Shown here: positions 1 through 43,833 of the stretch, piece after piece | Layout: every line of letters begins with the position of its first letter | How positions within the stretch are numbered: the stretch's first letter is position 1 | IMG/VR virus record: IMGVR_UViG_3300042401_001867 | Span: 1 to 60,482 of that record | Source: a virus | Taxonomy: Duplodnaviria > Caudoviricetes | DNA: 60,482 nt | Reading direction: 5' to 3' (one strand) | The notes under the pieces: generated by a model | Told to the model about the DNA's origin: nothing | Databases searched by the model: none | What the model saw: only the letters and a program-made list of their open reading frames with translations | Translations under genes and position numbers: made by a program

Positions 1-142
1 AGAACTTGCCGTGATTACGCCCGAAGCAACGGCGAGGTTTTTGGCGTTTGGGGTGGGGAGACAGAGATAGAGCGATACAACGCTGGATTTTTAGAGTTTG
101 TACCCCACCACCTAAGTCGGAACAGTGCTATCGTCAAGAGGG

Positions 143-367
143 ATGAACACTTATAACGATTTTTTGGCTACGATATCTATCTACTACGAAAAGCAAGCGC
201 TAGCAGGTGGGGATTTGAGATACGGGCAGATGTATATGAACCACCTATGGGAAGTAAAGCCCCGCATAGCAGAGAAACTAAATGGTTCGTTGCTTGACCC
301 GTTCCATAGGGATAACTGTCCACCTAAAGTCCACGAGTTCGTGGAAGCATTGTGGTTCAGCGAATAG
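143..367 (+). CDS. hypothetical protein
   Basis: ORF track 125..367; ATG at 143 lies just downstream of a -10-like TATCGT. Confidence 0.65.
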   Translation: MNTYNDFLATISIYYEKQALAGGDLRYGQMYMNHLWEVKPRIAEKLNGSLLDPFHRDNCPPKVHEFVEALWFSE

Positions 368-506
368 GACAGCAAGACGAGCGACGAGGTTTATGAATAA
401 CCCGTGAAGGTTTTTGCTCAGCCTCTTTTTTCTTTTTTTTGTCCTCGTCAGCCATACACCAAGAATACACCTTGTGTTTCGAGATGAGCCCCGCTACTAT
501 TTGGGT

Positions 507-704
507 ATGAGTTTGCCCCCACTATTTACCTGTTTTGTTTGTAACCACTCAATTGACCCGAACGCCAACAACTCTTTACGATTGGCAACTGTATGGCTGA
601 AGGGCGCTGGCAAGACGGTTCACGCTATTGAGAACGAGATGTATCGCTATCGCCATAACTTTTGTAACCTTGACCCGAACTTTGAGCAAGACAGTCTTTT
701 CTAG
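507..704 (+). CDS. small Cys/His-containing hypothetical protein (CxxC ... HxxC)
   Basis: ATG at 507 is 6 nt after TACTAT (leaderless pattern); CFVC and HNFC motifs. Confidence 0.55.
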   Translation: MSLPPLFTCFVCNHSIDPNANNSLRLATVWLKGAGKTVHAIENEMYRYRHNFCNLDPNFEQDSLF

Positions 705-904
705 CCGAGACGCATTGCGCCAATCGCCGAGTTTGTCTCGCCAAGTGTTTTGCCTGCGACATTGCCAGTAACGCCAACGCGAGTGTCAAGGTTTTTGAGT
801 ATCACCTGAACTTCGTCAAGTTTCTTGTTCATCTCTACGAGTGAGTTCATAACGGACTTCATTGCTTGCTCTATTGAGGTGTCTGTTGATGTGTCTAGTT
901 CCAT
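701..904 (-). CDS. small coiled-coil hypothetical protein
   Basis: ATG 904 is 7 nt after TAGGAT on the minus strand; heptad-like LVEMNKKLDEVQVILKNLD. Confidence 0.55.
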   Translation of the reverse strand: MELDTSTDTSIEQAMKSVMNSLVEMNKKLDEVQVILKNLDTRVGVTGNVAGKTLGETNSAIGAMRLG

Positions 905-934
905 ACGGCTAATCCTAGCAAGTATGATGACGGA

Positions 935-2857
935 GTGCGCCTCTACCTTGACCACGATTTGTTAGCACTTGACTTTCCGTATGACCCAGCACAGGTTGCT
1001 GAAGTCAAAGGTATAGCCGGGGCTAAGTGGGACAAGGTGGACAAGCTGTGGAAGGCACCCATAGCCTCAATTGGAGATGTGCGTGATTTTGCTGTCAAGC
1101 ACGGTTTTGACATATCAGATGAAGTAATGAAGTTCACGGCACCAACTAGAGCGTCACGAAAAGGTGTTTATGTGAAAGGTGACTGGGTATTCATACAGTT
1201 TCCTTACGACAAAGTTGTACTCAAGGTAGTCAAGCAGATAGCAGGCGTCACTTGGGATAACAAAGAGATGGCTTGGAGAGCGCCACTAGCGTCAGCAAGC
1301 GAAGCAATTGCGTGGGCTAAGTCGTTTGATGTTTTTGTATCGCCTGAAGTACACGGTGTTTCCACCTCAATAAACAAGAAGTTAGATGAACTAAAGGAAG
1401 CGTCACGCTCAACAGACGCAGATATCGAAGTCCCGCTACTACAAGGAACACTATTGCCGTACCAAAGGGCAGGCGTGGAGTACGCCTCAAAGGCTAAGAG
1501 ATGTTTTATCGCAGACGAAATGGGACTTGGCAAGACGATACAAGCAATAGCAACGCTGGAGTATTCATCTAAGAGTTCAGACACCTACCCAGTAGTCATT
1601 GTTTGCCCACCAACACTCGTACTCAACTGGCAGGCAGAGTGGAATAGGTGGTTGCCTCACAGAAAGGTGGAAGTGGTAACAAGTCGCAAGTCTTTCCCGG
1701 AGCCCCGGACGTACGACGTGGTTGTGGTTGGTTACTCAAATATCCAACACTGGGAAAAAGAACTAACTAGTCATAACTCATACATTTTTGACGAAAGCCA
1801 TTACGCAAAGACACCCACTGCCCAACGAACCAAGTCAGCGATAAAGATGGCTAAGTCGGCAGATAAAGATGGAATTGTGTTATGTCTCACTGGGACACCC
1901 GTAACCAATAGACCAGCAGAGTACGCCAGCCAACTTGACATCATTGGAAAACTGAAAGAGTTTGGTGGGTTGTGGGGATTTTATAGACGATATTGTTCAG
2001 CGTTCCAAGACAAGTTTGGTCAGTGGAATATCAGTGGTCACTCTCATCTTGACGAACTCAACGATAGGTTGCGTGGTACTTGCTACATAAGACGAACCAA
2101 GTCGCAGGTACTTACTGAACTGCCACCCGTGATACATAGTCCACTTCTTGTTGAGGGTACTGATGTGGGGCTCAAGGAGTATCGCAAGGCAGAACAAGAC
2201 ATAATCAAGTACATAACGGACAGAGCCAAAGAGATAGCGATAGAACTCGGAGAAAGCCCTCACTCGGCAGCCGTTGTGGCGAAAATAAGAGCAGAAAGTA
2301 ACGAACACCTCGTGAAGTTATCCGTTTTGAGGAGACTGTCAGCCAAAGCAAAGATGCCAATGGTTGAGGAGTGGGTACAGTCCCGCATTGATGACGGCAA
2401 GAAGGTTGTAATCGCCGCTCACCACAGAGACATTGTTGATGACTTGGCAAAGAAGTTTGGCAACCTGCGTATTCAGGGCGGTATGTCGGTTGAGGAAATA
2501 GAAGCACAGAAGGCGAGGTTCCAAGACGAACCCGTAGAGACTGCGCCAGTCATTGTGTTGTCTATTCAGGCAGCCAAGACTGGACACACGCTCACATCAG
2601 CACAAGACATTTTGTTCGTGGAACTACCGTGGACACCATCGGACTTAGACCAAACATTTAGTCGTCTACACAGAATTGGGCAAAAGGGAAGCGTCACGGC
2701 TACTTATATGCTCACTGACAACACGATAGACCAAGAGATTTACGCACTTATTGAGAAAAAGCGCAAGGTAGTGAACGCTGCGACAGAAGGTGGAGAGTTT
2801 GCTGCGAGTGGTGGTGCTACGCAATTGATACTTGACTTGCTATCGCGCGCACGGTGA
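935..2857 (+). CDS. SNF2-family (HARP/SMARCAL1-like) DNA helicase/annealing translocase
   Basis: Two N-terminal HARP-like repeats (FPYD...W...W.AP), LLPYQ, ADEMGLGKT, DESH, LTGTP, SRLHRIGQ motifs. Confidence 0.9.
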   Translation: MRLYLDHDLLALDFPYDPAQVAEVKGIAGAKWDKVDKLWKAPIASIGDVRDFAVKHGFDISDEVMKFTAPTRASRKGVYVKGDWVFIQFPYDKVVLKVVKQIAGVTWDNKEMAWRAPLASASEAIAWAKSFDVFVSPEVHGVSTSINKKLDELKEASRSTDADIEVPLLQGTLLPYQRAGVEYASKAKRCFIADEMGLGKTIQAIATLEYSSKSSDTYPVVIVCPPTLVLNWQAEWNRWLPHRKVEVVTSRKSFPEPRTYDVVVVGYSNIQHWEKELTSHNSYIFDESHYAKTPTAQRTKSAIKMAKSADKDGIVLCLTGTPVTNRPAEYASQLDIIGKLKEFGGLWGFYRRYCSAFQDKFGQWNISGHSHLDELNDRLRGTCYIRRTKSQVLTELPPVIHSPLLVEGTDVGLKEYRKAEQDIIKYITDRAKEIAIELGESPHSAAVVAKIRAESNEHLVKLSVLRRLSAKAKMPMVEEWVQSRIDDGKKVVIAAHHRDIVDDLAKKFGNLRIQGGMSVEEIEAQKARFQDEPVETAPVIVLSIQAAKTGHTLTSAQDILFVELPWTPSDLDQTFSRLHRIGQKGSVTATYMLTDNTIDQEIYALIEKKRKVVNAATEGGEFAASGGATQLILDLLSRAR

Positions 2858-2881
2858 GCCCCGCCGTCTCGTCACGCTGGA

Positions 2882-2907
2882 AATCTGAAGCACCCCCGTA
2901 TTAGGAT
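2882..2907 (+). promoter_or_regulatory. putative early promoter AATCTGAAGCACC-N7-TAGGAT
   Basis: Same upstream box and 7-nt spacing to a TAnnnT hexamer recur at 6227 (-) and 6837 (-), each ahead of a gene start. Confidence 0.6.
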
Positions 2908-2950
2908 TGCGTTGCCGCAAGGCACACAAGCCAACTGAAAGGGGCACAAA

Positions 2951-3151
2951 ATGGAAGAATGGGAAGAGGCGGGTTTCGCTTCGGAAGAGGCGTATGTGAA
3001 AGACGCAAACGCTATGTACGAAGCCGAGCAAGAAGCGGAGTTTTGTATGAACTTCGTCAACCGTGGGGGTATCGCATCTGAATGGCGACAGGCTTATCAT
3101 CAGTCGCAGATGACCGAAGAAGAGCTGGTCGCCTATCTCCACGGGGAATAA
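2951..3151 (+). CDS. acidic hypothetical protein
   Basis: 66-aa ORF with strong RBS (GAAAGGGG). Confidence 0.65.
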   Translation: MEEWEEAGFASEEAYVKDANAMYEAEQEAEFCMNFVNRGGIASEWRQAYHQSQMTEEELVAYLHGE

Positions 3152-3186
3152 GGCAAACGAAGCCCAACTGAAAGGGGGTGAACAAA

Positions 3187-3408
3187 ATGAAAAGGGAGAT
3201 TATTTGGCGCTTGACCGAAACTCAAAAGGCGCTCATTATGAGAGCAGTTCTACATTGCCCAACCCAAACGGGAATGGGCGCTGAGGAACTGGAGGAGTAT
3301 TGGGCTCACTCAAGCGCACTTGAGTTGGAACTTGAGCAACTCGGTCACGGTGGCGAGGGGTTGTGGTGGTATTTGTACCACAACACCAAGCGCCGAAAGA
3401 AGCGCTAG
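3187..3408 (+). CDS. hypothetical protein
   Basis: ORF with the same CAACTGAAAGGGG...ACAAAATG leader as the preceding gene. Confidence 0.6.
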   Translation: MKREIIWRLTETQKALIMRAVLHCPTQTGMGAEELEEYWAHSSALELELEQLGHGGEGLWWYLYHNTKRRKKR

Positions 3409-3463
3409 TGGACAGAGGCAGGGGCACACAGCCCTTGTCTCTCGTCTGCGTGTGTGGCGGGGC

Positions 3464-3886
3464 TTATTCGACCTTGCTGTCGGGAACTATGCCCATCAAC
3501 TCATCAGCAATTAGTTTTGCGTATTTTCTGCGCAGTTTCCATATTTTTTGGTTCATTTCAGCCATTGCGTCAGTGGTGCGTGCCTTCTTTATTGCGTCAG
3601 TATCAAAAACGCCGTACTTCTTAAACAAAATATCGTCAAGGTCGTTGTTCTCAATGATTATGTCGCTAATCCAATGACCCCTCTTGTCAATGCTCATCAG
3701 TAGTTCACAAAGACCCTCAAAGCCAAACTCGTTGTAGACACGGTTGGTTACTAAATCGCAGAAATGGGCACGGTACATCATCTCTGCCTCGGCTGTGTTG
3801 GTCATAAACTCACTCAGCCATACGGCGAGTTCTTCTCGTGACGGAATATCACCATCGTCTCCGTCAAACTCAAAGTCTTCTTCCAT
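3464..3886 (-). CDS. acidic hypothetical protein
   Basis: 140-aa ORF, GGAAGG upstream. Confidence 0.7.
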   Translation of the reverse strand: MEEDFEFDGDDGDIPSREELAVWLSEFMTNTAEAEMMYRAHFCDLVTNRVYNEFGFEGLCELLMSIDKRGHWISDIIIENNDLDDILFKKYGVFDTDAIKKARTTDAMAEMNQKIWKLRRKYAKLIADELMGIVPDSKVE

Positions 3887-3942
3887 TAGCCTGCCTTCCG
3901 TTGTACCGGGGCTCTAGTAATCAATGATACTTGTGATGACTG

Positions 3943-4968
3943 TCAAGCCAAAGACAGAATAACTTCTTGCGCCAACACCTTCTTTTGTGTGACCCAGGAA
4001 TTGCTATTCATTGAGGCAAGCGCACGCTCATCTGCCTTGCCTTCACGATAATGGTCAAGGTATTCGGCAATAGCGTTGTACGCACTCCACCCGTTATACC
4101 CGTAGCCACCTGCGTTTCTTTCGTTGTCGTACACTCCACGAACAAGCGCTACTACTCCGTCACGGTTTTTCTTTTGCCTATCAGTGCCGTTCGTTTCGTT
4201 GGGGAACACCTTGTCAAGTATCGTTGCGAGTTGCGCACTTCGTGGTGGAACGTTGATGGTGAGCAACTTATTGGCTACAAACTGGAACGACTTCGCCCAC
4301 TCCGTTGATATTTCTAGAACTTTCTGTGCTTCCTCAATGGCGTTGTCAGCGTTACGAGTGTGTCGTGCCGTGAACACACGACGGGCAGACGCTTGACCTG
4401 CGATTACGGTGTTCTTACATACTGCTCTGATTGAGGTGTTAGCAAAGGTGATAGCCGTCTTGCCATCGTGACCATTACGAACTAGTAGGTAACGGTCTAT
4501 CTTGTCGTTGATACCCGTGGGGTCAATGATGAGTTGCCCCAAGTCAAGAGAACTAAAGAACTCTCTGCCTTCGTCAAGTACGCCACAAGTGTCTACTACT
4601 GCGTCCCCCTTCGAAGCCCCGACTATTGCGAGGGCGTAATCCAAGCACTCACGGTTTTGCTGTACGACATAGCGAGTACCTACTGTGGCTAGTCCGTCAA
4701 ATGTGCCGTCAGGATTTACTCTCACGGTTGCTCGGCTGTCCTCAATAATCACTGGCGTGTTGTCAGGGTTTCTAATGAGGTTGCCCTCTGCGTCTACGAC
4801 TGCGACCTTCGTTGTGACCACATCAAAGTCAGCCTGCGCTGCTTGGAGCATTGCCTCTGCCGTCTGTAGTCCCTTCATAGGAACACCTAGACGATGCCAC
4901 GGGACTTCACGGTCAGCATAAGCCATTCTCGCTATGCCCTTGTTGTCTACTTCTAGTGAGTGTGCCAT
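3943..4968 (-). CDS. DUF932-family phage/plasmid protein
   Basis: MAHSLE start, PWHRLG, YVVQQN, RYLLVRNGHDG, TSIRAVCKNT, RHT, WSAYNAIAEYLDH motifs typical of DUF932. Confidence 0.85.
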   Translation of the reverse strand: MAHSLEVDNKGIARMAYADREVPWHRLGVPMKGLQTAEAMLQAAQADFDVVTTKVAVVDAEGNLIRNPDNTPVIIEDSRATVRVNPDGTFDGLATVGTRYVVQQNRECLDYALAIVGASKGDAVVDTCGVLDEGREFFSSLDLGQLIIDPTGINDKIDRYLLVRNGHDGKTAITFANTSIRAVCKNTVIAGQASARRVFTARHTRNADNAIEEAQKVLEISTEWAKSFQFVANKLLTINVPPRSAQLATILDKVFPNETNGTDRQKKNRDGVVALVRGVYDNERNAGGYGYNGWSAYNAIAEYLDHYREGKADERALASMNSNSWVTQKKVLAQEVILSLA

Positions 4969-5067
4969 AACGCCTTGTCTCTCGGTTGCTTCGTAGTTAG
5001 ATTTATCTGAAAGCAAGCATACACTCTGCCCTCTTACTACTGGAGTAAGTGACCTACACCTCTTATT

Positions 5068-5340
5068 TCACCTGTCAAACACTATTTCCTGTGACACTTG
5101 GATTACTTGACCGTACTTCTTTACTAGGTCATCAGTCGCTTCTAGTGTGTTGCCGTGACACCAACGGACTGCGAGACCACTAAGAGTGTCACCTTCCTGA
5201 ACGATTACTCGGTCAATGTCACAAAAATAACTATCGTCACCTCGCACTGCGACAAACATACAGAACAAAACTACCAAGAAAAATAATGGTAGTAGTATCA
5301 GGTCACGCTTCTCGGTTTGCTTCGTGTTGTATTTGCTCAT
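5068..5340 (-). CDS. membrane-anchored LysM-like protein
   Basis: Hydrophobic segment followed by VIVQEGDTLSGLA...IQVSQEI. Confidence 0.6.
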   Translation of the reverse strand: MSKYNTKQTEKRDLILLPLFFLVVLFCMFVAVRGDDSYFCDIDRVIVQEGDTLSGLAVRWCHGNTLEATDDLVKKYGQVIQVSQEIVFDR

Positions 5341-5530
5341 TTGATTTGCCCTTTCGGTAGGTACTAATTACACTAGGGTAGTTTGACCCCTATGTCAAGG
5401 ATTTCCGATTGGGCATACTGGGTATGACTACTACCCGTAGCACTACCCGTAGTCACTTGCTGGCTTCATATGCGTTGGTAGGTGGCATGTCAGGTGGGCT
5501 ATGACACTCCGTACCGGGGCTTCGAGATTG

Positions 5531-5905
5531 CTATTGGCTAGATGGTGCTATCCACTCACCACCACTGGCTAACACTGTCCCTCCACTAGGGGCGATACTC
5601 CAAGCGTAGTTACAACAAGGCTTCTCGCTGTACGGACTAGGGTGTGCGCCTCGCTCTATTGACTTGGCTAGTAGTGGGAAGGTGTCTAGCAACTTCACGA
5701 TACAAGCGTGGCACATACTCCACGACTTCAGTAATTCATCAGACTTCATAATTGCTTCTATGTTGTCTGTAAAGCCATTGTAATAACCAAAGGTTTCGTA
5801 AGGCAACCACCAACCATCGTCAATGGCAGTTGGGGAACTGATACTGGCTGGATACATCTCGCCACAAGCGTCGCACATCACTGCGTCGGGTGTTGGATTA
5901 TTCAT
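5531..5905 (-). CDS. Cys-rich hypothetical protein
   Basis: CDAC, CHAC and CC motifs; ATGA-type overlap with the upstream gene. Confidence 0.65.
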   Translation of the reverse strand: MNNPTPDAVMCDACGEMYPASISSPTAIDDGWWLPYETFGYYNGFTDNIEAIMKSDELLKSWSMCHACIVKLLDTFPLLAKSIERGAHPSPYSEKPCCNYAWSIAPSGGTVLASGGEWIAPSSQ

Positions 5906-6195
5906 AAGGCGTACTCTCCTCGCTTCCTTCGGTAATGGGATACAAACTCATCACTATCATAGTCACAAGGTGACCACACTATGTCGGCTTCACTGAAGGT
6001 ATCGTCAGGGCGTAAGCGAACTATCACATAGTCAAAGGCATCATCAGCGTTGCGTGTGAGGTACTTCATACAATCTACGAGGGTAGAGCGATACTCAAAG
6101 TAATCAGGTAGGTCATAGCGACACATACTCCAAGCGTCACCATACGAGGGGCAATCAACTACTGCGTACCTGCGTCTGTCTTTCTCAACGGTCAT
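5902..6195 (-). CDS. hypothetical protein
   Basis: 97-aa ORF with a leaderless start after TAGGCT. Confidence 0.65.
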   Translation of the reverse strand: MTVEKDRRRYAVVDCPSYGDAWSMCRYDLPDYFEYRSTLVDCMKYLTRNADDAFDYVIVRLRPDDTFSEADIVWSPCDYDSDEFVSHYRRKRGEYAL

Positions 6196-6201
6196 AGGGT
6201 G

Positions 6202-6227
6202 AGCCTACGGTATGGGTGCTTCAGATT
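6202..6227 (-). promoter_or_regulatory. putative early promoter AATCTGAAGCACC-N7-TAGGCT
   Basis: 14-bp exact reverse-complement match to 2882-2895; ATG follows 6 nt after the -10. Confidence 0.6.
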
Positions 6228-6268
6228 ACTAGTAGTCATAACCCGTAGTGCTACCCGTGCGTCTTGCG

Positions 6269-6355
6269 TCAGTCATGGTCTTTCAGTTTCATCGCACAAT
6301 AGACGAGGGCGATACCTGCGAGGCACATCAGGTCAAGCAATGTCGCACCACTCAT
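6269..6355 (-). CDS. 28-aa hydrophobic peptide (MSGATLLDLMCLAGIALVYCAMKLKDHD)
   Basis: Translated by eye; ATGA coupling to the stop of 6352..6540. Confidence 0.45.
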   Translation of the reverse strand: MSGATLLDLMCLAGIALVYCAMKLKDHD

Positions 6356-6540
6356 TGCTCACAACCTACTGCGTCATCACTGTCATCAGTGAGACTGAAC
6401 TTGGGCATTACGAACAGCGTGTTACCTATGCTGTATGCGTTACGACTTGCGTTATACATTGCGTCAGGGAATAGACGAACCAAGTCAATCGCTGTCAGTG
6501 GCGTGTCGCGTAGGTGAACTACGTTTCGTATTCGTGCCAT
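6352..6540 (-). CDS. hypothetical protein
   Basis: 62-aa ORF within a run of minus-strand genes. Confidence 0.55.
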   Translation of the reverse strand: MARIRNVVHLRDTPLTAIDLVRLFPDAMYNASRNAYSIGNTLFVMPKFSLTDDSDDAVGCEQ

Positions 6541-6557
6541 TGTCGTTGTCGTTCGTT

Positions 6558-6782
6558 TTACTTCGTGCTAGCGATTGCGTTTGCGTAATAGACGTCATCG
6601 CACCACTCTGCCAACCTCACTAGGTCAGCAACCAACGAACCTTCGTAGTTGAGTAACTCAGCCAACCCATTAGGCAGTGTTTGTGAATTGCTATCGCCAC
6701 CTCGCTTCGTGTTGTATATCGCCGTGATGAGTTCACTAGCAACTCTCGCGACATCACTGAAACTATTTGCGTTGTGTACCAT
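6558..6782 (-). CDS. hypothetical protein
   Basis: 74-aa ORF with AAGGGGA RBS. Confidence 0.6.
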   Translation of the reverse strand: MVHNANSFSDVARVASELITAIYNTKRGGDSNSQTLPNGLAELLNYEGSLVADLVRLAEWCDDVYYANAIASTK

Positions 6783-6811
6783 ATTGTCCCCTTGTCTAGT
6801 AGTTATCGTAA

Positions 6812-6837
6812 GCGTACAGCATAGGTGTATCAGATTT
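6812..6837 (-). promoter_or_regulatory. putative early promoter AATCTGATACACC-N7-TACGCT
   Basis: Third copy of the AATCTGAnnCACC box with the same spacing to the -10. Confidence 0.55.
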
Positions 6838-6939
6838 CTAATGCGTTTTCAGAGGGGTCGACGGGGCTCTTTCCGAACACATACCCCACCGGTGGGCACT
6901 AACGAGCCAAAATATGGAGTTGCCGGACTTTAAATAGAT

Positions 6940-14152: not shown

Positions 14153-14452
14153 TTATTGCAGTCTCTGACCGCACTTTAGGCAGGTGACAGACCACGGATA
14201 GCGCCTAACCGAAGGATGTTCGCATTCAAGCAATGACTTTGCCTTTGCATTGAGTATGTCTCGTATCCACGCCGACATCGTCTTTCCCTCAACTACGGAA
14301 GCCTGTCTCCAGCGCTCCCTAACTTCGTCGGTGGTTCTAATGAGGACGGATGTGTTGGTTGGGCCTTCGTCATCCTTTTCTATGGGGCGCACGGTAAGGT
14401 CGGTCGTGTCAGCAACAGCCTTCATTGCTGTCTCCAGGTTGCTATCACTCAT
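14153..14452 (-). CDS. ribbon-helix-helix-like DNA-binding protein with C-terminal Cys motif
   Basis: SVLIRTTDEVRERWRQAS...TMSAWIRDIL; CEH...CLKC. Confidence 0.6.
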   Translation of the reverse strand: MSDSNLETAMKAVADTTDLTVRPIEKDDEGPTNTSVLIRTTDEVRERWRQASVVEGKTMSAWIRDILNAKAKSLLECEHPSVRRYPWSVTCLKCGQRLQ

Positions 14453-15086
14453 CTGTGTCCTCTTGTTCTGTTTCTTCCTGAGTGGATACTACCTCAGCAT
14501 CTACTATGTCAGACTCACCAAGCATTTCTCTGACTGAGCTTTCTGGCAAAACCCCGGAAATACCCATCAATTGCAAAAGCTGTCTGGCTTCTGCCTCTGG
14601 GTCAAACGTATTCCCAATCTGTTTTAGTTGCTCTGACCCAGCGAGAGTTGCTTTTATCGTCTCTGTGGTTTTGTTGCCAACGTCCATTTGCACGTTTATA
14701 TTGGTCTGGTCCATGCCGAGCAGTTTCGTTCTTCTGTCCATTATTGAAAGAACCTGCTGAATTGCTTTTAGGTCTGGCTCAACCGCTATTTCGGTGCCGT
14801 CATCAGTCACGATTCTTCTGTGTTGGGTCATAGGCCAAATCGCTTGTTGGAGGTTATCAAGTCGTTCGAGTTCTAGTCGAAGAACCTCCGGATACGCCAT
14901 TAGCGTTTCCCTGTTCATCTTCTCAAGCTGACGAGATACTGATTTAGAAACAGCGCTTGTTGTCATCCCGAATCTACGAGCTATTTCTGAAGACGATGTG
15001 CCAGCTTGGCGAAGTTTGAATATACGCATATCCCGCTCGCCAAGAAACTCGCGAGTTACGATTTTGTTACCTTTGTCTTCGCTCAT
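14445..15086 (-). CDS. HTH protein, candidate terminase small subunit
   Basis: N-terminal HTH (LRQAGTSSSEIARRFG) plus LELERLD...IWP...DLKAIQQVLSIMDRRTKLLGMD, a pattern recalled from actinophage TerS-like proteins. Confidence 0.6.
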   Translation of the reverse strand: MSEDKGNKIVTREFLGERDMRIFKLRQAGTSSSEIARRFGMTTSAVSKSVSRQLEKMNRETLMAYPEVLRLELERLDNLQQAIWPMTQHRRIVTDDGTEIAVEPDLKAIQQVLSIMDRRTKLLGMDQTNINVQMDVGNKTTETIKATLAGSEQLKQIGNTFDPEAEARQLLQLMGISGVLPESSVREMLGESDIVDAEVVSTQEETEQEDTDE

Positions 15087-19222: not shown

Positions 19223-21148
19223 ATGACGTCGCTTGACCAAACATTCGTGGATTCGTATTCCCTAAAACAGGCTCCCTGGGGCTTTAACGGTATGGGGGAG
19301 ATAGTTTTTCTTCGCACCTACAGCCGTAAAAAAGATAACGGAAACAACGAAACTTGGCCAGAAACTCTTCAGCGTGTAATCAACGGCGCGATGGAAGTTG
19401 GTGTTGAGTACACCAAGGAAGAGGCAGAGGCACTTTTCGACCATTGTTTTAACCTTCGTTGCTCTTTTTCGGGTCGTTCTCTTTGGCAACTCGGAACACC
19501 ACTTGTTCAGAAGCTAAATGCAACTTCATTAAACAATTGTTACTTCACCAACATCGAAAAGATTGAAGACTTCGAGTTGTTGTTCGAATACCTAATGCTC
19601 GGTGGTGGTGTTGGTTTCTCTGTAGAGCGCTCCAAGATTCACGATTTGCCAAAGGTGAAACTAGGCGTAACGATTACGCACGAACGTAGTAACGATGCAG
19701 ACATTATTGTCCCCGACTCACGTCAGGGTTGGAAGCGACTTCTTCATGCAGTATTGAAGTCGTACTTTGATACCGGAAAGTCTTTTTCGTACTCAACGGT
19801 TCTTATTCGCGAGTATGGTGCACCGTTGAAAACATTCGGTGGTACCGCATCTGGCCCTGGGGCTCTCATCGATGGAATCGCAGACATTGCGAAAGTAATG
19901 CAGAATCGCGAGGGCAAGAAGCTCCGTTCGATAGACGTGCTTGACATTTGCAACATTATTGGTCGTATTGTCGTCTCTGGTTCATCGCGACGTTCGGCAC
20001 AGATTGCGATGGGTGACCCAGATGACGTTCTTTTCCTTCGTGCCAAAAATTGGGCATCTGGGAACATCCCAGCATGGAGAGCAAACTCAAACAACTCCAT
20101 TTACGCCGACCACTACGACGAAATCATGACCGAACTCTGGAAAGGCTACGACGGAACAGGTGAACCTTATGGCTTGTTGAATCGTCGACTTGCTCGCAAG
20201 TTCGGAAGGCTCGGTGAGGCTAAGGCCGATAACTCAATTGAAGGCTTCAACCCATGCGCGGAAATAGCACTAGCCGACGGAGAGTCGTGCAACTTGGCAA
20301 CCATATTCTTGCCAAACGTTGAGTCGCTTGAGCAATTTAAAGAAATCTCCCGTTTGCTTTATAAGACACAAAAACAAATAACTCGCATGGCTTATCCGTA
20401 CGAGAAGACAACGAACATCGTCAGCAAGAACGCACGACTAGGACAATCAGTAACTGGAATCCTCCAGTGTTCAGAAGAGCAGGTTTCTTGGCTGTCACCT
20501 GCATATGAGTACTTGCAGGAATTTGACAAGCATTACTCCGCTGAGCGTGGATGGCCGGAATCGGTTCGCTTAACCACGGTCCAGCCTTCTGGAACGCTTT
20601 CGCTCCTTCCTGGCGTGACTCCTGGAATCCACCCTGCATTTGCTCCTTTCTACGTCAGACGGGTTCGCTTTGGCTCTTCAGACCCCCTTGTGGACGCTTG
20701 TCGCAAGCGTGGATACAAAATCCAGTGGGACATAGGCATTGACGGCAGAGAGGACCACACGCGTTATGTGGTGGACTTCCCATGCATGTCACCGGAGGGC
20801 TCAATTCTTGCTTCAGCAATGACTGCGGTAGAGCAGCTTGAGTGGGTCAAGAAGATGCAGACCGAGTGGGCAGATAATGCTGTTTCCGTGACTGTCTATT
20901 ACCGAAAAGAGGAACTCGGAGAAATTCAGGAGTGGCTCTCAAAGAACTACGACAAGAGCGTTAAGTCGGTTTCATTCTTGTTGCATGTTGACCATAACTT
21001 CTCCTTGCCTCCATACGAGGAAATCACTAAAGAGGAGTACAACAAGATGCTCGCCAAGGTTGATTTTTCAACTCCGTTGCAAGACGTTGCTTTTATGGGA
21101 GATTTGGACCTCGACAATTGCGCAACGGGTGCCTGTCCGATAAAGTAG
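19223..21148 (+). CDS. nrdJ: class II adenosylcobalamin-dependent ribonucleotide reductase (monomeric type)
   Basis: RTYSR, LNNC, GGGVG, RRSA, NPCAE active site, TTVQPSGT, C-terminal CATGACPIK. Confidence 0.93.
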   Translation: MTSLDQTFVDSYSLKQAPWGFNGMGEIVFLRTYSRKKDNGNNETWPETLQRVINGAMEVGVEYTKEEAEALFDHCFNLRCSFSGRSLWQLGTPLVQKLNATSLNNCYFTNIEKIEDFELLFEYLMLGGGVGFSVERSKIHDLPKVKLGVTITHERSNDADIIVPDSRQGWKRLLHAVLKSYFDTGKSFSYSTVLIREYGAPLKTFGGTASGPGALIDGIADIAKVMQNREGKKLRSIDVLDICNIIGRIVVSGSSRRSAQIAMGDPDDVLFLRAKNWASGNIPAWRANSNNSIYADHYDEIMTELWKGYDGTGEPYGLLNRRLARKFGRLGEAKADNSIEGFNPCAEIALADGESCNLATIFLPNVESLEQFKEISRLLYKTQKQITRMAYPYEKTTNIVSKNARLGQSVTGILQCSEEQVSWLSPAYEYLQEFDKHYSAERGWPESVRLTTVQPSGTLSLLPGVTPGIHPAFAPFYVRRVRFGSSDPLVDACRKRGYKIQWDIGIDGREDHTRYVVDFPCMSPEGSILASAMTAVEQLEWVKKMQTEWADNAVSVTVYYRKEELGEIQEWLSKNYDKSVKSVSFLLHVDHNFSLPPYEEITKEEYNKMLAKVDFSTPLQDVAFMGDLDLDNCATGACPIK

Positions 21149-22250: not shown

Positions 22251-22460
22251 ATGAAACATATAATTCACGTTCATCAACAAAAAATCAAAAAGGGTCTTGA
22301 CGCAATAATAGATAGAACCTATAAGGGGTCAAAACATAGTCGAGGCTTGACTATACTTTGTCCAAGTTGTGGATGCGATGCAGCAAAAATAGTTCAATCT
22401 CAAAAACCTGACAAGTGTGGGGCCAGGGTTTGGATTGAGGCAGAAAGCGTCAGTGAATAA
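22251..22460 (+). CDS. hypothetical protein
   Basis: IIHVHQQKIK ... CGARVWIE motif. Confidence 0.7.
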   Translation: MKHIIHVHQQKIKKGLDAIIDRTYKGSKHSRGLTILCPSCGCDAAKIVQSQKPDKCGARVWIEAESVSE

Positions 22461-22479
22461 ACAACACGGAGAAGGGGCT

Positions 22480-23151
22480 ATGGAAGCACAAAGTTTTGGT
22501 TTTGTTCGTCTCGACTCATGTATGGCTGATGATATTTCGGTCGTCAATTCGGCTCGGGTTTCATTTGCTAGGTCGCAGCAAGAGATGGATGAATCCGCAA
22601 TAGGATTAATCAACTTTCTCATGCGCGAGAAGCATGGGACTCCTTTTGAGCACAATGCATTTCGGTTTCATGTTAAGTGTCCGGTTTTTGTTGCTAGAGA
22701 GTGGTTCCGGCACAGGATTGGCTCGTTTAATGAATTTTCAGCAAGATACAGCGAGGTACAGGAAGACTTTTTTGTCCCATACCAAAACGATGTTAGGTCG
22801 CAGGTTGGCAAACCGGGGTCATACGAGTTCCTTCCGGTCGGTGAAGACGTTGCCGACCAGGCGATAGAAATAATCAATCAAGCAAATAGCAGCGCGTACG
22901 AGTCATATAGAAAACTTATAGATATTGGCGTTGCAAAAGAACTATCAAGAACTGTTCTCCCGGTTGGTATGTACACACAGTTCTATTGGACGGCAAACGC
23001 TCGCTCTTTGATGAATTTTCTTTCGTTGCGGTTGTCTAAAACAGCGCAACTTGACATCAGGGGGTACGCAAAGTCCGTAGAGGCTATTTTTGCAGAAAAA
23101 ATGCCTGTTACGCATAAAGCCTGGGTTGAGAATGGGATGAATTGCCCTTAG
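22480..23151 (+). CDS. thyX: flavin-dependent thymidylate synthase
   Basis: ARVS, HGTPFEH, RHRIGSFNEFSARY signature, NARSLMNFLSLR. Confidence 0.93.
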   Translation: MEAQSFGFVRLDSCMADDISVVNSARVSFARSQQEMDESAIGLINFLMREKHGTPFEHNAFRFHVKCPVFVAREWFRHRIGSFNEFSARYSEVQEDFFVPYQNDVRSQVGKPGSYEFLPVGEDVADQAIEIINQANSSAYESYRKLIDIGVAKELSRTVLPVGMYTQFYWTANARSLMNFLSLRLSKTAQLDIRGYAKSVEAIFAEKMPVTHKAWVENGMNCP

Positions 23152-23270
23152 GCGTCATTTAAATTTATCGCAATTGTAAGTCCTGGTAATAAGACTTACT
23201 ATTGCTATGATGCATTATGAGGGAGCATCCATCTAGGTGGTGCTGAAACTGACTCTGTCTACCCTCACTC

Positions 23271-23343
23271 TGGCGAGTAGCTCAGTTGGCAGAGCAGCGG
23301 ACTGTTAATCCGCTTGTCGTAGGTTCGAGCCCTACCTCGCCAG
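23271..23343 (+). tRNA. tRNA-Asn(GTT)
   Basis: TGGCGAG/CTCGCCA acceptor, GCGGA-CTGTTAA-TCCGC anticodon arm. Confidence 0.92.
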
Positions 23344-23365
23344 CAACTAGTATTGGCTAAACCAC

Positions 23366-23455
23366 GGAATGGTGGCAGAGAGGCTTATTGCACCTGTCTT
23401 GAAAACAGGAGTCCGTTTGCGCGGACCGGGGGTTCAAATCCCTCCCATTCCTCCA
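23366..23455 (+). tRNA. tRNA-Ser(TGA)
   Basis: GGAATGG/CCATTCC acceptor, CCTGT-CTTGAAA-ACAGG, long variable arm, encoded CCA. Confidence 0.92.
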
Positions 23456-23473
23456 TGTATGTTATTGTTTTGG

Positions 23474-23550
23474 GCACGCAATAGCATCAGCGGTAGAGCA
23501 CTCACACTATCTAGTGGGAGGTTCCTGGGTTCGAGCCCCAGGCTGCGTGT
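23474..23550 (+). pseudogene. aberrant or degenerate tRNA (anticodon unassignable)
   Basis: GCACGCA/TGCGTGT pairing, intact CCTGGG-TTCGAGC-CCCAGG T arm, bulged D stem, 8-nt loop ACTATCTA. Confidence 0.6.
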
Positions 23551-23553
23551 CTA

Positions 23554-23628
23554 GCCCTTTTAGCTCAGTGGTAGAGCACCTCACTTGTAATGAGGTGGTC
23601 CTCGGTTCAATCCCGAGAGAGGGCTCCA
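23554..23628 (+). tRNA. tRNA-Thr(TGT)
   Basis: GCCCTTT/AGAGGGC acceptor, CCTCA-CTTGTAA-TGAGG, encoded CCA. Confidence 0.92.
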
Positions 23629-23650
23629 AGTGATGTAGAATTCATTCCCC

Positions 23651-24451
23651 ATGGGAATAACTATTTACAGGAACCAAAGGATTGGCAAAATACCGCCAAC
23701 CCCTGCTGTCTCGATAGTCGACGAATCAGTCACCCCGGACAGTATCAAGTCACTTATTGAGTACGGCTCGATGCTCGGCCACCCAGTCTCCTACCTTCAG
23801 GAGCAAGATGGTCGATTAATTCATAACTTGGTACCTGTTCACAAAACAGAGTCTCAGCAGATTTCGACATCTTCCAAGGTTGAGCTGGAGATGCACACAG
23901 AGTCATCCTTTCATCCATACCGGCCCTCTTATGTCCTGCTGCTCTGTTTGCGCGGCGATGAAGCCGTAGCGACAACATACGCCAATGATTTTGATATAGT
24001 TCCAAAGTTGAGCCAAGAAGCAGTTTCCATACTTCAAAAAGAATGGTTCACAACACAAATTGACCAAAGTTTTAGGTCGGATGGGCAGCCAGATATTGAT
24101 GTCCGCACGTCGATACTTGAAAGAATAAGCCAAGATACAAATTCCGGCTGGAAAATAACTTACGATTCGTGGTTTATGAAAGCCGTTGGAGATGGAACCG
24201 AGGAGTCTCGATTGCAAGCCGAACGGGCGCTACTGGAGATGCGCGAGGCGGTTGATTCTTCCACCAACGAGGTAGTCCTAAAGACAGGTGACTTATTGGT
24301 AATAAACAATGATTGCACCGTTCACGGAAGAAAGCCATTCCAACCGCGATATGACGGAACCGATAGATGGGTCCAGAGAATGCTTGTGGTTCGTGAAATG
24401 CCACCGGCAGAGCATGTTGATGGGCACATGATTATCACCGAGTTTAAATAG
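23651..24451 (+). CDS. clavaminate-synthase/TauD-like Fe(II)/2-oxoglutarate oxygenase
   Basis: LEMHTE (HxE), LLLCLR.D, LKTGDLLVINN...HGR.PF...DRWVQR. Confidence 0.85.
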   Translation: MGITIYRNQRIGKIPPTPAVSIVDESVTPDSIKSLIEYGSMLGHPVSYLQEQDGRLIHNLVPVHKTESQQISTSSKVELEMHTESSFHPYRPSYVLLLCLRGDEAVATTYANDFDIVPKLSQEAVSILQKEWFTTQIDQSFRSDGQPDIDVRTSILERISQDTNSGWKITYDSWFMKAVGDGTEESRLQAERALLEMREAVDSSTNEVVLKTGDLLVINNDCTVHGRKPFQPRYDGTDRWVQRMLVVREMPPAEHVDGHMIITEFK

Positions 24452-33707: not shown

Positions 33708-36700
33708 TCAATCGACCACCAAATCGAGTTGTTGGCCTTTTCTGATGCTGTCAAGCGTTGACTTTAATTCTGCATCAATTTCGGCGTCGATTGCTTTCTT
33801 CAGTATCTCATCAACTCGTGCGTTTTGATTTGCAGTTTTGTCGTATGAGCGTGGATTCTCGATATTGATTCCTTGTGGGTGGGCGAACTTGACGTAACCA
33901 ATACCCATTCCCTCGTACTGTTCTTTTATCTTTTTTGCAGTACGGTACTCTTTGAGCTTGGTCATGCTTGCTGTATTTATTGGTTTTCCTCCAGACATTG
34001 AGTAAAAGTATGCAATCTCTTCTGGGGTGAATCCAAGCTTTTCAAGTTTTGATTTCATTGAGTTTTGACTTACAACATCTGATATATCTTCGGATTCTGC
34101 AATCTTTGAAACTTTTGAATACGGATAATGTATACCTTCTACTTCGTTCTTTTTGAAACCGCCGAGTATTTGTGCCTCAAACGGCTCATGCCCTCTTGCT
34201 CCGGAGTCAACCATTCCAACTGGGGACATCTTCCCGTTCTCGTCACGTGAAGCACCAACCGATGAAAAGTTCTTGTCCATTTTTGCGCCAAGCAAATGGA
34301 GCATGGCTTCTGTGTTTTGCTCCTTCGAAGAGATGCCGTCAGCATTGAACAGGGCATCAGCAATGTCGTCAGCGTCTGAGGAGTTCATCGAAACAGGCCT
34401 GTGCGCTGACTGAAGGGCTTCGCCGCGACCGTATGAAGTTCTGTCTGACACCTCTGGCTTGAGAATCACTTCAATTTCGCCAAGGGCCGTAAGTCCGTCT
34501 CCAACAACGTCGGTATCGCCAATCTCGAATATTGCATCACTACCAATATTGCCTTTTCCTGATGCCGCAATTTGTCTCTTCTTTTCTTCGTTGTGTGAAC
34601 GGTGCACTACATAACCGCTGACAGGTTTAGCCGAGTTTGGGGTTGATTTACTAATACCAATCCTGCTGTTGTATTCACCCCTGAATGCGTCAGCAGAGCG
34701 GCCGGCTCTTTTTCCAGAACTAAATGGGTCACTGAAGTCATCAAACTCTGTCTTTGCTGGTTCGTAGGTGTTGTCGTCGCTTCCACTAAATGAATCAGTT
34801 GCAGATTTACTATTTTTGCCTCTCCTAAATCTTTTTCCAATTTTTTCGCGAGCCGAGTCGACAACCTCGCCAGCGTTGGTAACAAATTCGCTCCCTGAGG
34901 CACGGATAACATCGCCGAATTCATCAAGTCTCTGCATGTTCTCGTCTGTCGCTACTCGCTCGTCAATGAAATCAGATGCAACCGACCAAGCATCTGCAAG
35001 CTTGTCGACAACTGGGTCGGGCAAGCCATTGGGGGCCACCCTGTTTACAGCCTGCATCGCTACGTCCATTTGTTGCTGCGTTATCTTTCCTCTTTGAACA
35101 GCTTCCTCTAAACCTCGCTCTGCGATTTCTCTTCCAGCTCTCCTGGATACATCCACAGCAAGCGCTGTTGCGAAACCAGCAGGCCCACCAGCAGCAAGAG
35201 CACCAGCCATATTCATGCCGTACTTAACGCGTTCGCGGGTATCTTCGTCTGCTCCTGAGCGCTTTAGAACTGCGTCCAAGACTCTTCCAGTTGCACGACC
35301 GCCAGCAATACCTGCGACTCTCTGTGTTCTACTTGTACCGCTTCTCGCTCCAGAGGACAATCGTCCAGAATCAGAACCAGTACCACCGGCAAACAGCTCT
35401 CCAAGTTCGCTCAACTTGGATGAGTGATTGATTTTTTCTGAACCGATGTTGTATTTTTCTGCCAATGAGAGCATTAATCTGCCGTGACCACGACGGTGGT
35501 AATCCTCTGGGACGAGTACGTCCGAGATGGTTAGCTTGTCTTGATTGCCGAGCTCTCCGCGAATGTCAGTTCTTGCGTAAAGGACCCCAACCTGCGTTCC
35601 GTTTGACCTCATTCTTACCGTGACGTTCTGTACCTCTCTGTCATCAAATCGGGTCTCCAATTCTGATTCTATTGATACCTTTATTGCGTCCCCGTTTTTG
35701 TCTTTTACAGTCAGCTGTACGTCTCTGCTTTTAATGCGATTCGATTCTTTGGAAACAGATAGCTTGTCTTTGTCTACCGCTACGGAAACTGAATTAATGT
35801 CGAGTTTGACTCTATTCTTTTCGATTCTGTCAATTACGCTGTTTATATAGTCCCAACGACGACCACCAGAACGTTCAGCATCGCCTACGGTTGAGTATGG
35901 GGTCAGGTCTCTATTGATAACCTTCAACAAATCATCATTGACGGACATTCTTGCTTTTGGTAGTTTACTGCTGGCATAGCCAGTACTACCATTCTTTTTT
36001 AGCAGTTCAAGAGTCTCCCCTTCTGAAGCAACCACTCCAACGTCATAGAAATTGATTTTTGTTAAGTCATCAATATCGTTGAGTATTGTTGCGATTCTCT
36101 TAAATTCTGGAACATCGTAGTAATTATCTATCGACTCATACGTGTCACCCTTATTGAACCATCCTCCTCTATCGATAAATCGTTTGAACTCCCTATCAAA
36201 TATCAAATCCGATTTTCCAACACCAAAAATTGGATACCATTTACCTGTTGGATTTTCTTTCCCGCCTTTACCAGTGCTCTGATAGAACGGTATTCTTATT
36301 CCGTTTACGTCAACTAAGACCATGGGTCTTCCAGCAACTGAAAAAATTGGCGACTTTATCTCTTTGCCTGTTTCTGAATCAATCAAATCTACTTCTGCTA
36401 TTTGCAAATCCAGATTCCTCAAATATTTTTCTGCATCACTAACTTTTTGAAGTTGTATTTTTCTTTTTTTCAGCGAAACCCTTGCACCTGATGAAAGTTT
36501 TACTGATGAGGAATTAGAATCGCTAAGCGGTTTTCCTCTACGAGCACCGAGGACTGAAGCGGGCGTTACTTCGCGTCCTTCTCTTTCCAAACGTATTGCT
36601 CGAGCCATGAGGGCATTGGTTGCCTTTCCCCACTCATTTCGTTTTGCATCCTCGCTGGTCAGCGGGTTGTATCCTCCCTTGGGGGCAGAAACACTAAATA

Positions 36701-42398: not shown

Positions 42399-42414
42399 GG
42401 CGGGTCGCCCTTTC

Positions 42415-43833
42415 CTAGAGAGTATCTGTTTCTGCTTCGAGGAGCTGGAACTCAACAAGTGACTTCATAAAGTCTCCATCAAGAGTCTCATCGTCTTTCT
42501 TGCTCATTCCTTCTCCACCAGCAACCCAATTAGCAGGAATCAAATTTTCCTTGCCGAGTTCTTTTGCTCTCTTCATGATGTGCTTCTTTGTGGCGTCCTT
42601 GTCCTTTGCTCGTCCAAATGCTTGGACTGCGTTACGGAGGTCGGTCTCACTAGCAATCGGGTATGAGCCATCTGGCATTGCCGTTCCAGCTTCTGCCATT
42701 GAAGTGCGCTTGTCTTCACTGAAGGCTCTCTTCAGAGCAATTTCTGCAGCCTCTGCTTCAATGTCTTCTGATTCCTCTGGTTCGTACTTGTCGTAGCCAA
42801 GAACCTCACCGTCAAGAGCGACGAATACGTCGTATGACTTGCCATCGAATCCTTCGATTTCTACGGCGTAAGAATCTATGCCTTCAAAGTTATCTGGCTC
42901 GACAGCAACAACATGTCCGTCAATTGACTTGACTGCAATCTCTGCTGCATCGGTGAAGCTGATGAGGTTCAATTCGTCAATGGCTGCCTTTTGCTCAAAG
43001 ACACTTTCGTCAAGCTTGTGCCATCCCATAACTTCTGCTGATGTTCCATCAATGAAAACCTCAACTGCTTTTCCATCTTTTGCCTGAACATCAACAACGA
43101 ACATGTCGGCGTCTGGCGAGTAACCAGAGTCGATGACTTTTCCTTCAAACATGTCTTCGGCCATGCCTTCTGCCTCAAGCAAACCTGGCATTCCTTTTTC
43201 TGCAATGCAGCCACCTGGGCAGTCATCACAAACCGAAGTTGCACCATCATAGGACTTGCGCTCTATCGCGCAAACATAATCATGGTCACCGAAGTCTTCT
43301 GACTTAATTCCCATGGATGCGATTCTCTTCTTACGGAACTTGTCCATCATGAAATTGACCTTTTCGGCCTCTGCCATGTCCTCTTCGTCCTCGTTGTCCA
43401 TTTCGTCTTCTGTTAGTTCTTCTTCCTCTTCGTCTTCTTCAGACATTTCTTCGTCTTCTTCAGACATTTCTTCGTCTTCTTTTTTCTTAAACTTACGCAT
43501 GGCGGTGTTGATTTTCTCTTCACCCTCCATCATCTCTTCTTCTTCTTCTTCTTCTTCGGAATCCATATCTACACCCATGCCCATGCCCTTCATTGGCTTC
43601 TTTTTAGGCATCATCTCGTACATTTTTTCCATGTCTTCTTCTGACATCTCTTCATCAGCAATATCCAAATCAGTTGCTGGTACCATCTTCATCTCGACCG
43701 GCATTGCACCACACTTGCCGCACACCTTTGCGCCAGGCGTATAGCCACATGCAGATGCATCCAACCCCTTTGCGCATCTGAGCACAGCGCCTTCACTGTC
43801 GATGCCCACTGTTGTCTTGTCGTCGTAAGCCAT
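42415..43833 (-). CDS. acidic scaffold-like protein with PepSY-like repeats and C-terminal AMPDGSYPI domain
   Basis: Glu/Met-rich tract, Cys clusters, YAVEI...YDVFVALDGEVL, AMPDGSYPI...DLRNAVQAFGRA...HI.KRA. Confidence 0.7.
   Translation of the reverse strand: MAYDDKTTVGIDSEGAVLRCAKGLDASACGYTPGAKVCGKCGAMPVEMKMVPATDLDIADEEMSEEDMEKMYEMMPKKKPMKGMGMGVDMDSEEEEEEEEMMEGEEKINTAMRKFKKKEDEEMSEEDEEMSEEDEEEEELTEDEMDNEDEEDMAEAEKVNFMMDKFRKKRIASMGIKSEDFGDHDYVCAIERKSYDGATSVCDDCPGGCIAEKGMPGLLEAEGMAEDMFEGKVIDSGYSPDADMFVVDVQAKDGKAVEVFIDGTSAEVMGWHKLDESVFEQKAAIDELNLISFTDAAEIAVKSIDGHVVAVEPDNFEGIDSYAVEIEGFDGKSYDVFVALDGEVLGYDKYEPEESEDIEAEAAEIALKRAFSEDKRTSMAEAGTAMPDGSYPIASETDLRNAVQAFGRAKDKDATKKHIMKRAKELGKENLIPANWVAGGEGMSKKDDETLDGDFMKSLVEFQLLEAETDTL
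43427..43480 (-). repeat. in-frame 21-bp tandem repeat (EMSEEDE)
   Basis: TCTTCGTCTTCTTCAGACATT twice plus a partial copy. Confidence 0.8.

Follow-up and report, generated by a model that had tools for sequence, protein, structure and literature searches.

AGCCCCG, a selected and island-confined heptamer in a family of large lake phages, and its possible role as a recognition box for a DNA-binding protein

In Cluster A mycobacteriophages, the stoperators of the L5-type repressor are described as many short asymmetric copies through which one protein controls transcription at many points; they are given as 13-mers lying in promoters and short intergenic spaces, genome-wide, with an orientation that follows transcription (PMC9283540). 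The elements called PeSLs in T4-type phages are reported as sigma-70-like promoters combined with stem-loops (commonly a G tract and then a C tract) that flank orphan genes and recombine (PMC2839356, PMC4122927); the stem-loops are stated to act as terminators and the cassettes to be intergenic (PMC2839356). As far as excerpts of PMC10644984 go, T5-like phages resist restriction if their first-step-transfer segment is site-free, the first-entering segment of T5 is a terminal repeat with two oppositely oriented early gene strings, and no distributed heptamer is mentioned for this region. The subject of this report is the heptamer AGCCCCG (complement CGGGGCT) in IMG/VR virus record IMGVR_UViG_3300042401_001867; the entire 60,482-base record was analysed and is called the window below. 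AGCCCCG is kept by selection at the DNA level, is confined to one island of the phage genome and is conserved across a phage family. It is tentatively read here as a putative recognition box of a sequence-specific double-stranded-DNA protein that would mark an early-gene island.

The window contained ten copies of AGCCCCG or CGGGGCT, all within positions 1-6868, and by exact count there were none elsewhere in its 60,482 bases. Markov models of orders 1-3 gave an expectation of 0.44-0.87 copies for positions 1-6920. AGCCCCG was the top over-represented 7-mer of this left block (10 observed vs 0.47 expected, Poisson p 9e-11), while the remaining 53.5 kb of the window contained 0 copies. Shuffles of the whole window contained a mean of 4.33 copies and reached ten or more in 1 of 100, a weaker result because shuffling ignores the clustering. 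A first-pass annotation, made from the sequence alone, had listed the same ten positions, an expectation of under one copy and no copies past 6.9 kb, and these counts bore it out; its AGTCCCG variants at 1429, 2379 and 4900 were also recovered. Its further statement that the heptamer is restricted to the left block is an effect of the truncation of the contig at its left end: in a related genome, read almost completely, a 34-kb island of copies extends past the block.

The window is a fragment of a larger phage genome, and two related records were rated complete, at 172,519 and 160,449 bases. Relatives were found using the SNF2-family helicase gene as a marker (935-2857 on the plus strand; PF00176, E 3e-28). 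At least 346 contigs encoded a relative, and the best 80 of them were examined, loci being designated by L numbers; 22 of the relatives in IMG/VR were close, with helicases 68-100% identical. Five related records contained 56, 57, 56, 56 and 23 copies of AGCCCCG, compared with 2, 3, 1, 1 and 1 copies of the reversed control word. In the 160-kb record (160,000 of 160,449 bases read; its "direct terminal repeats" label is an assembly class), 57 of 57 copies fell within 78,805-112,995, an island of approximately 34 kb. This island is an array of small early-type genes, and it contains the restriction-site-poor block described below yet is larger than it. Outside the island, AGCCCCG was observed 0 times against 3.4-6.7 expected, and GCCCCG 4 times against 12-25 expected. 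Other words were also scarce in the part of this record outside 78-113.5 kb (L023-L030): the most depleted hexamers were of the form ATnnTA or were AGTCTA, the complements of which resemble -10 promoter hexamers, and outside the island GCCGGC was observed 0 times against 13 expected.

Conservation in homologous regions, on which the first-pass annotation had made its proposal depend, was found in every one of the 22 close loci. Another 49 loci, each of at least 6 kb, were counted: 42 of them carried at least six copies and 20 had AGCCCCG as their top 7-mer. The G+C content of these 49 loci ranged from 42% to 59%, their other repeated words, read as promoter elements, differed, and AGTCCCG was co-enriched in several of them. 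A switch to another motif in word-poor relatives was considered and rejected: the top words of L060 and L067 were tandem repeats and not dispersed sites. These dense tandem repeats, with units of 6-18 nt, were located at 10430-10760 in L060 and 14900-15338 in L067, relatives with few or no heptamers.

Family DNA was found in lake-water metagenomes. No DNA match to a cultured phage relative was found among 50,697 phage records, and the best protein matches to cultured phages were at 35% (helicase) and 48% (capsid). One family contig had been binned in a metagenome-assembled genome of the Actinomycetota, a weak hint at an Actinomycetota host that agrees with the similarity of the capsid protein to those of actinophages.

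Twelve helicase genes, 63-91% identical at the nucleotide level in the pairs measured, were aligned by codon. Three intragenic copies were kept letter for letter: an antisense copy at alignment column 86 (11 of 12 sequences), a sense copy at column 769 (9 of 12) and an antisense copy at column 1234 (10 of 12). As background, of 148 four-fold sites at which the residue is conserved, no more than 14 were invariant, so the check at synonymous positions that had been proposed with the first-pass annotation favoured the motif. The column 86 copy (window 1018-1024, minus strand) was preserved even across an Ala-to-Pro change, and the column 769 copy (1701-1707, plus strand) has CCGG on both of its flanks. 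At column 1234 the window itself carries a decayed copy (2166-2172, minus strand) with a single C-to-T change, Ala to Val, while 10 of the 11 relatives aligned have the exact heptamer. AGTCCCG variants lie within the same gene on the plus strand at 1429-1435, abutting the TCGA at 1425, and at 2379-2385; at the site of the former, L009 and L020 have an exact copy on the opposite strand. Copies also arise anew, at column 1610 of L009 via several synonymous changes in five adjacent codons and additionally in the helicase gene of L020. Because synonymous positions are kept, an amino-acid change was survived and new copies arise, AGCCCCG appears to matter as DNA, or on both strands, and does not reflect a codon pattern. 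A signal read in RNA in one sense is excluded because sense and antisense copies occur in one gene; in L069, 29 of 56 sites were sense and 27 antisense by a purine-skew proxy. The 16-nt context of the new L009 copy is one base off that of an unrelated L010 copy (13845), which hints at short-patch copying between sites.

Copies inside genes and copies at gene ends had both been reported for the window, and both were seen: the former in the helicase and DUF932 genes and the latter at the stop codons at 2857 and 3458, with the gene calls inside 1-6900 being uncertain. On the plus strand, the copy at 258-264 comes right after a TAA and has an orthologous copy in L007, L008 and L010. The copy at 487-493 (plus strand) is 13 nt 5' of an in-frame ATG at 507 and has a TCGA 4 nt upstream, as do its orthologues in L007 and L010. 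The first base of the copy at 2857-2863 (plus strand) is the final base of the helicase stop codon, and a promoter-like word match follows 3' of it at 2880. Two minus-strand copies bracket the open reading frame (ORF) at 3464-3886 on the minus strand: that at 3458-3464 overlaps its stop codon and is 3 nt off a TCGA, and that at 3907-3913 is 20 nt upstream of its ATG and has near-identical flanks in L003, L007, L008 and L010. Within the DUF932 gene (3943-5016, minus strand; PF06067, E 1e-38), an antisense copy at 4615-4621 (plus strand) abuts the TCGA at 4611; the copy is present in L003, L007 and L010 without the TCGA, which is common to one other relative. An AGTCCCG variant follows at 4900-4906 on the minus strand, where the plus strand reads CGGGACT. 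The minus-strand copy at 5515-5521 lies 10 nt past the stop of the ORF at 5531-5905 (minus strand) and abuts the TCGA at 5522, a TCGA also found at the orthologous sites of L007, L008, L010 and L017. The rightmost copy, at 6862-6868 on the minus strand, abuts the TCGA at 6858. It lies on the edge of the restriction-site-poor block and a short distance upstream of a conserved promoter-like element that points left (minus strand, approximate limits 6806-6845, word match at 6830). This element would, as a putative promoter, drive the leftward gene string from 6782 to 3464. A gene-end signal was considered and rejected: few sites lay within 14 nt of the end of an ORF of at least 50 codons, 3 of 10 in the window and 7 of 57 in the 160-kb relative, and the opposite orientation scores no lower (10 of 57).

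Positions 1-6900 form a restriction-site-poor block, the visible part of the motif island, cut at the left end of the contig. The block is sharply bounded and holds two converging gene strings. Observed and expected counts of the depleted tetramers were: TGCA 0 vs 30, GGCC 0 vs 21, TTAA 1 vs 11, CATG 2 vs 23, AGCT 2 vs 26, ACGT 5 vs 40 and TCGA 6 vs 26; CTAG, GTAC and GCGC were not depleted. In L010 the block starts approximately 2 kb further left, and in the 160-kb relative the purged tetramers numbered 2-22 per 2 kb in 80-92 kb, compared with approximately 50 elsewhere, and were partly low in 96-110 kb. GATC was missing altogether, with 0 in the whole 60.5-kb window against approximately 194 expected (176 + 18) and 0 in 160,000 bases of the complete relative (L023-L030), and some more distant relatives had 12-74 per locus.

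The first-pass annotation had noted that 0-4 nt separate each of the six TCGA sites in 1-6900 from a copy or variant, and had proposed that the heptamer is a binding, nicking or modification site whose footprint locally relieves selection against restriction sites. The observation was reproduced exactly: 6 of 6 TCGA sites lay within 6 nt of the motif against a position-based expectation of 4.5% (binomial p 9e-9). Five of six CCGG sites also adjoined a copy, a largely trivial link since G directly follows 42% of single sites. Among nine close loci tested, all TCGA sites were motif-adjacent in six (e.g., all 6 in the window and all 5 in L010). In the nine loci, no association with the motif was seen for CTAG, GTAC and GCGC, the palindromes that are not purged.

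An explanation along the lines first proposed would have a virion-delivered or early protein shielding restriction sites, or the word acting as a programmed nick or modification site. Consistent with it, the surviving TCGA, CCGG and AGCT sites adjoin the heptamer in most of the nine loci tested, and four of the six window TCGA sites have no counterpart at the orthologous places of most examined relatives and so look like recent gains that are tolerated. Additionally, the phage encodes a 3316-residue polyvalent protein with matches to ArdC-N, a zincin metallopeptidase, sigma-70 region 4 and WYL, and 5 of 5 loci without the heptamer were also without a purged block, these loci not being independent. 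The flanks of the sites weigh against this explanation. In the window clade, TCGA was found upstream in 36 of 137 distinct flanks of single sites and downstream in 3 of 137, compared with an unpurged background of approximately 2.6% per 10 nt, and AGCT was found upstream in 22 of 137. Since upstream TCGA is at approximately ten times neutral density, this is enrichment and not relief, and the proposed relief by a footprint is not borne out in the form given. At paired sites TCGA was found in 4 of 109, with no excess. The upstream TCGA is carried by at least ten separate site groups, but in the most distant relatives examined it was far weaker (1 of 49, 7 of 221 and 3 of 179; the second and third values are still approximately 2.6 and 5 times local backgrounds that are themselves low, and the counts are small). 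In the window, six further purged tetramers (TGCA, GGCC, CATG, TTAA, ACGT and CGCG) showed no clustering around the motif (1 of 13), and 12 of 17 related loci without a purged block, again not independent, were rich in AGCCCCG. Modification of the heptamer's own bases could not protect a TCGA 2-5 nt away. Programmed nicks of the T5 type seem unlikely because copies on both strands lie 23-36 bp apart at most intergenic sites, where nicking would risk double-strand breaks. Shielding, nicking or modification is accordingly given little credence as an explanation of the heptamer. What stands of the earlier proposal is a functional site at the DNA level, plausibly bound by protein, as the synonymous and family-wide conservation and the non-hairpin pairs suggest. 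The TCGA link itself is real, one-sided and mainly confined to the window clade, a lineage-specific composite feature and not evidence of a restriction shield; TCGA as a part of the motif was rejected, as it has no excess at paired sites and is far weaker in other clades.

The motif has a 7-bp core. At 88% of single sites it was followed by G or C, and positions -1 and -2 seldom had C. In 13 intergenic gaps inspected within small-gene arrays, the heptamer formed convergent pairs in a typical order, given along the coding direction of the gene: stop codon, hairpin and T run, AGCCCCG, spacer, CGGGGCT, a 19-bp element, a purine-rich ribosome site and ATG. A strong G+C hairpin with a T run preceded the pair in 11 of 13 gaps, and the conserved 19-bp promoter-like element was 3' of the pair in at least 10 of 13. 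Terminator-like sites numbered 18, compared with 10.3 +/- 3.0 in shuffles. Because the pair sits between a terminator and the next promoter-like element, paired sites probably lie in DNA that is little transcribed. A 14-bp palindrome (CGAACA, two bases, TGTTCG) was sometimes located between the pair and the promoter-like element in L008, L010, L017 and L027 (e.g., L027 9792-9805) and was not found in the window block; it resembles the LexA box of Gram-positive bacteria.

After de-duplication there were 190 convergent pairs, none of which had a spacer shorter than 16 bp. Spacers peaked at 16-19 bp (55 pairs) and 23-29 bp (39 pairs), with smaller groups near 38 and 46 bp, and the best period over 16-60 bp was 10-10.5 bp. 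In 92 of 116 distinct loops there was no pairing past the 7-bp stem, the first inner loop position paired in 24 against 37 expected by chance, and the loops were without structure of their own. Orientation alternated in 478 of 664 neighbouring pairs of sites, and neighbours lay within 200 bp of each other in 10 of 186 cases with the same orientation, compared with 180 of 478 with opposite orientation. With no short spacer, no stem extension and such orientation rules, the pairs would suit two facing protein-bound sites on double-stranded DNA and not a hairpin selected for stability. Hairpin promoters of the kind used by the virion RNA polymerase of N4-like phages, considered on account of the 3316-residue ORF, were rejected: that ORF is a polyvalent protein, and the "loops" are variable, at 16-72 nt.

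The arrangement of the gaps also invites a reading in which the inverted pairs are attenuator or terminator stem-loops of PeSL-like terminator-promoter cassettes, the 7-mers serve as exchange points and single copies are leftover half-sites. The pairs do lie in gaps between small ORFs beside a conserved promoter-like element, and of 149 ends of homology blocks between relatives, 25 were no more than 10 nt away from a copy, where chance would give 4.7% (binomial p 3e-8, with non-independent pairs of relatives). The heptamer marks mosaic joints between relatives, as PeSLs do in T4-type phages. As terminators, however, the pairs are poorly built, with 0 of 190 spacers under 16 bp, the same 92 unextended stems and no T run past the pair, and a separate strong terminator is already present 5' of the pair in 11 of the 13 gaps. 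Nor are the singles debris, since intragenic single copies are selected at synonymous sites and arise anew; in some clades they dominate, L041 having 29 sites and 0 pairs and L069 56 sites and 3 pairs, with spacers up to 90 bp. Seven bases are, moreover, very short for homologous exchange. A cassette origin for the heptamer is therefore regarded as doubtful.

The alternation of orientation and the G-rich complement bear on another explanation, in which the heptamer is a Chi-like signal for a strand-tracking enzyme that stops a host exonuclease on DNA exposed at a time when the anti-nuclease proteins of the phage are yet to be made. CGGGGCT is short and G-rich, it is spaced fairly evenly on each strand with almost no same-strand neighbours under approximately 150 bp, it lies inside genes in either orientation, and it is enriched in a region that sheds restriction sites. 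In the window clade TCGA is on one fixed side of the heptamer, and under a Chi mechanism a cut at such a TCGA would send the enzyme towards the G-rich strand from one direction. Chromosomes of the candidate host order nevertheless give no sign of such a use: in 31 genomes of this order (Actinomycetota), AGCCCCG was no commoner than the reversed control word (e.g., 53+40 vs 58+62 and 29+31 vs 37+41), with the host link itself being weak. A Chi-like role offers no reason for the 16-bp minimum, the two spacer classes or the restriction to one island, and the same heptamer recurs across phages of 42%-59% G+C, the hosts of which probably differ. It is judged quite improbable.

The explanation favoured here, which is put forward as a possibility and was derived from sequence comparison, is the recognition box named at the outset. 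We infer that a protein binds the heptamer, that the phage encodes this protein and that binding has an effect. A predicted protein would read the 7-bp box, for which G or C is the usual next base and C an uncommon preceding one. Single boxes would be bound whichever way they point, both within long genes and at the ends of genes, and head-to-head double boxes would be bound in untranscribed gaps between a terminator and the promoter-like element of the next unit. With a spacer of 16-19 or 23-29 bp between them, the two bound proteins would touch. The likeliest job of such binding would be co-ordinated control of the island, in which early transcription would be shut off, insulated or silenced much as at distributed operator or roadblock sites.

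Several observations weigh against this explanation. The small island ORFs gave no usable match in Pfam (E up to 0.1), PHROGs or Atlas and no candidate binder, and a comparison of gene presence and absence around the helicase, in which the flanks of heptamer-less loci were short, gave no binder either. A scan for the sigma-70 consensus found 8 sites against 10.0 +/- 3.7 in shuffles, and the label "promoter" is assigned from conservation and position only. The spacer period near 10 bp owes most to the first peak, without which the best periods were 11.5-15 bp. In L041 (900-9100) the heptamer lies in the loops of long perfect intergenic hairpins with stems of 8-17 bp, a placement also compatible with single-stranded DNA or RNA being the form recognised, and the alternating orientation and even per-strand spacing would also fit a strand-tracking enzyme. 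The avoidance of AGCCCCG outside the island is modest. Finally, the one-sided TCGA excess at single sites of the window clade is unexplained by a protein-box model.

A broader version of the protein-box explanation, and an unlikely one in our estimate, would make the heptamer a family-wide "address code" that marks a 30-35 kb early, first-exposed, defence-facing island for a conserved phage protein. Such a protein, perhaps virion-delivered, would dock head-to-head at the gaps between units and singly in long genes, and the island DNA would form a domain of its own that serves entry, protection or timed silencing. The carriers would be a family of large freshwater phages, probably of Actinomycetota. 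For viruses, the literature searches made here brought up no comparable domain-specific word. A full-text search with the heptamer string returned nothing relevant among the matches listed, and searches on restriction-site avoidance and on conserved inverted repeats in phage early regions yielded no account of the element. If the heptamer is a protein address, it would allow an early and probably anti-defence island to be delimited from sequence only in hundreds of uncultured lake phages, provide a defined probe for fishing out the regulator, and make these phages a test case for a large phage that treats one part of its chromosome differently.

Elsewhere, the window encodes a capsid protein, a portal, a large terminase, a primase-helicase, a class II ribonucleotide reductase and ThyX; in the left block the SNF2 helicase and the DUF932 protein stand amid small ORFs. 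The 3316-residue polyvalent protein (43970-53920, minus strand), which also has a match to prohead protease S78, is probably packaged in the virion, and the ORF adjoining it (33708-42458, minus strand), of 2916 residues, had no Pfam or PHROG family match. ThyX, three tRNA genes and a TauD/TfdA-type dioxygenase are clustered at 22417-24451 (plus strand), with the class II ribonucleotide reductase upstream at 19223-21148; a dioxygenase beside ThyX could bear on base modification. Next to the primase-helicase gene, a 213-residue protein (14445-15086, minus strand) had weak sigma-70 region 4 and GerE helix-turn-helix matches and a PHROG match labelled RNase E, and is a candidate DNA-binding regulator. 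A search of the window, L010 and L017 against Rfam found no family besides tRNAs.

Short words far above chance in and between genes are known from host chromosomes, where they include uptake sequences, Chi and matS; some uptake sequences occur as inverted pairs at gene ends. Unlike these, AGCCCCG is viral, is limited to one 34-kb island and is not over-represented in the candidate host order, although the assignment of that host is weak. The likeness to the T5 pre-early region concerns the block and not the heptamer: sites are missing in one segment and normal elsewhere, but here the purged block lies inside a larger island.

As with the PeSLs of T4-type phages, the heptamer forms intergenic repeats, here beside elements that are promoter-like by conservation and position (13 gaps) but not backed by the sigma-70 scan. 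Small orphan genes of a plastic region lie between these repeats, and exchange points between relatives coincide with the element (25 of 149 block ends). In contrast to PeSLs, only the 7-mer is conserved here, the "stem" is unextended and none of the 190 pairs has a loop under 16 nt. There is already another terminator upstream of the pair, which is itself not built like a terminating stem-loop, and the same heptamer is selected inside coding sequence. With the stoperators of Cluster A mycobacteriophages it shares an asymmetric short word, many copies (56-57 per related record) and a phage of Actinobacteria, the host link being weak. It differs from them in its length of 7-9 bp, in that half of the copies are antisense and orientation does not follow transcription, and in its often intragenic position, its head-to-head intergenic pairs and the placement of all 57 copies within 34 of 160 kb. 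Overall, among the systems compared, the heptamer appears most like the operator and stoperator sites of Cluster A mycobacteriophages.

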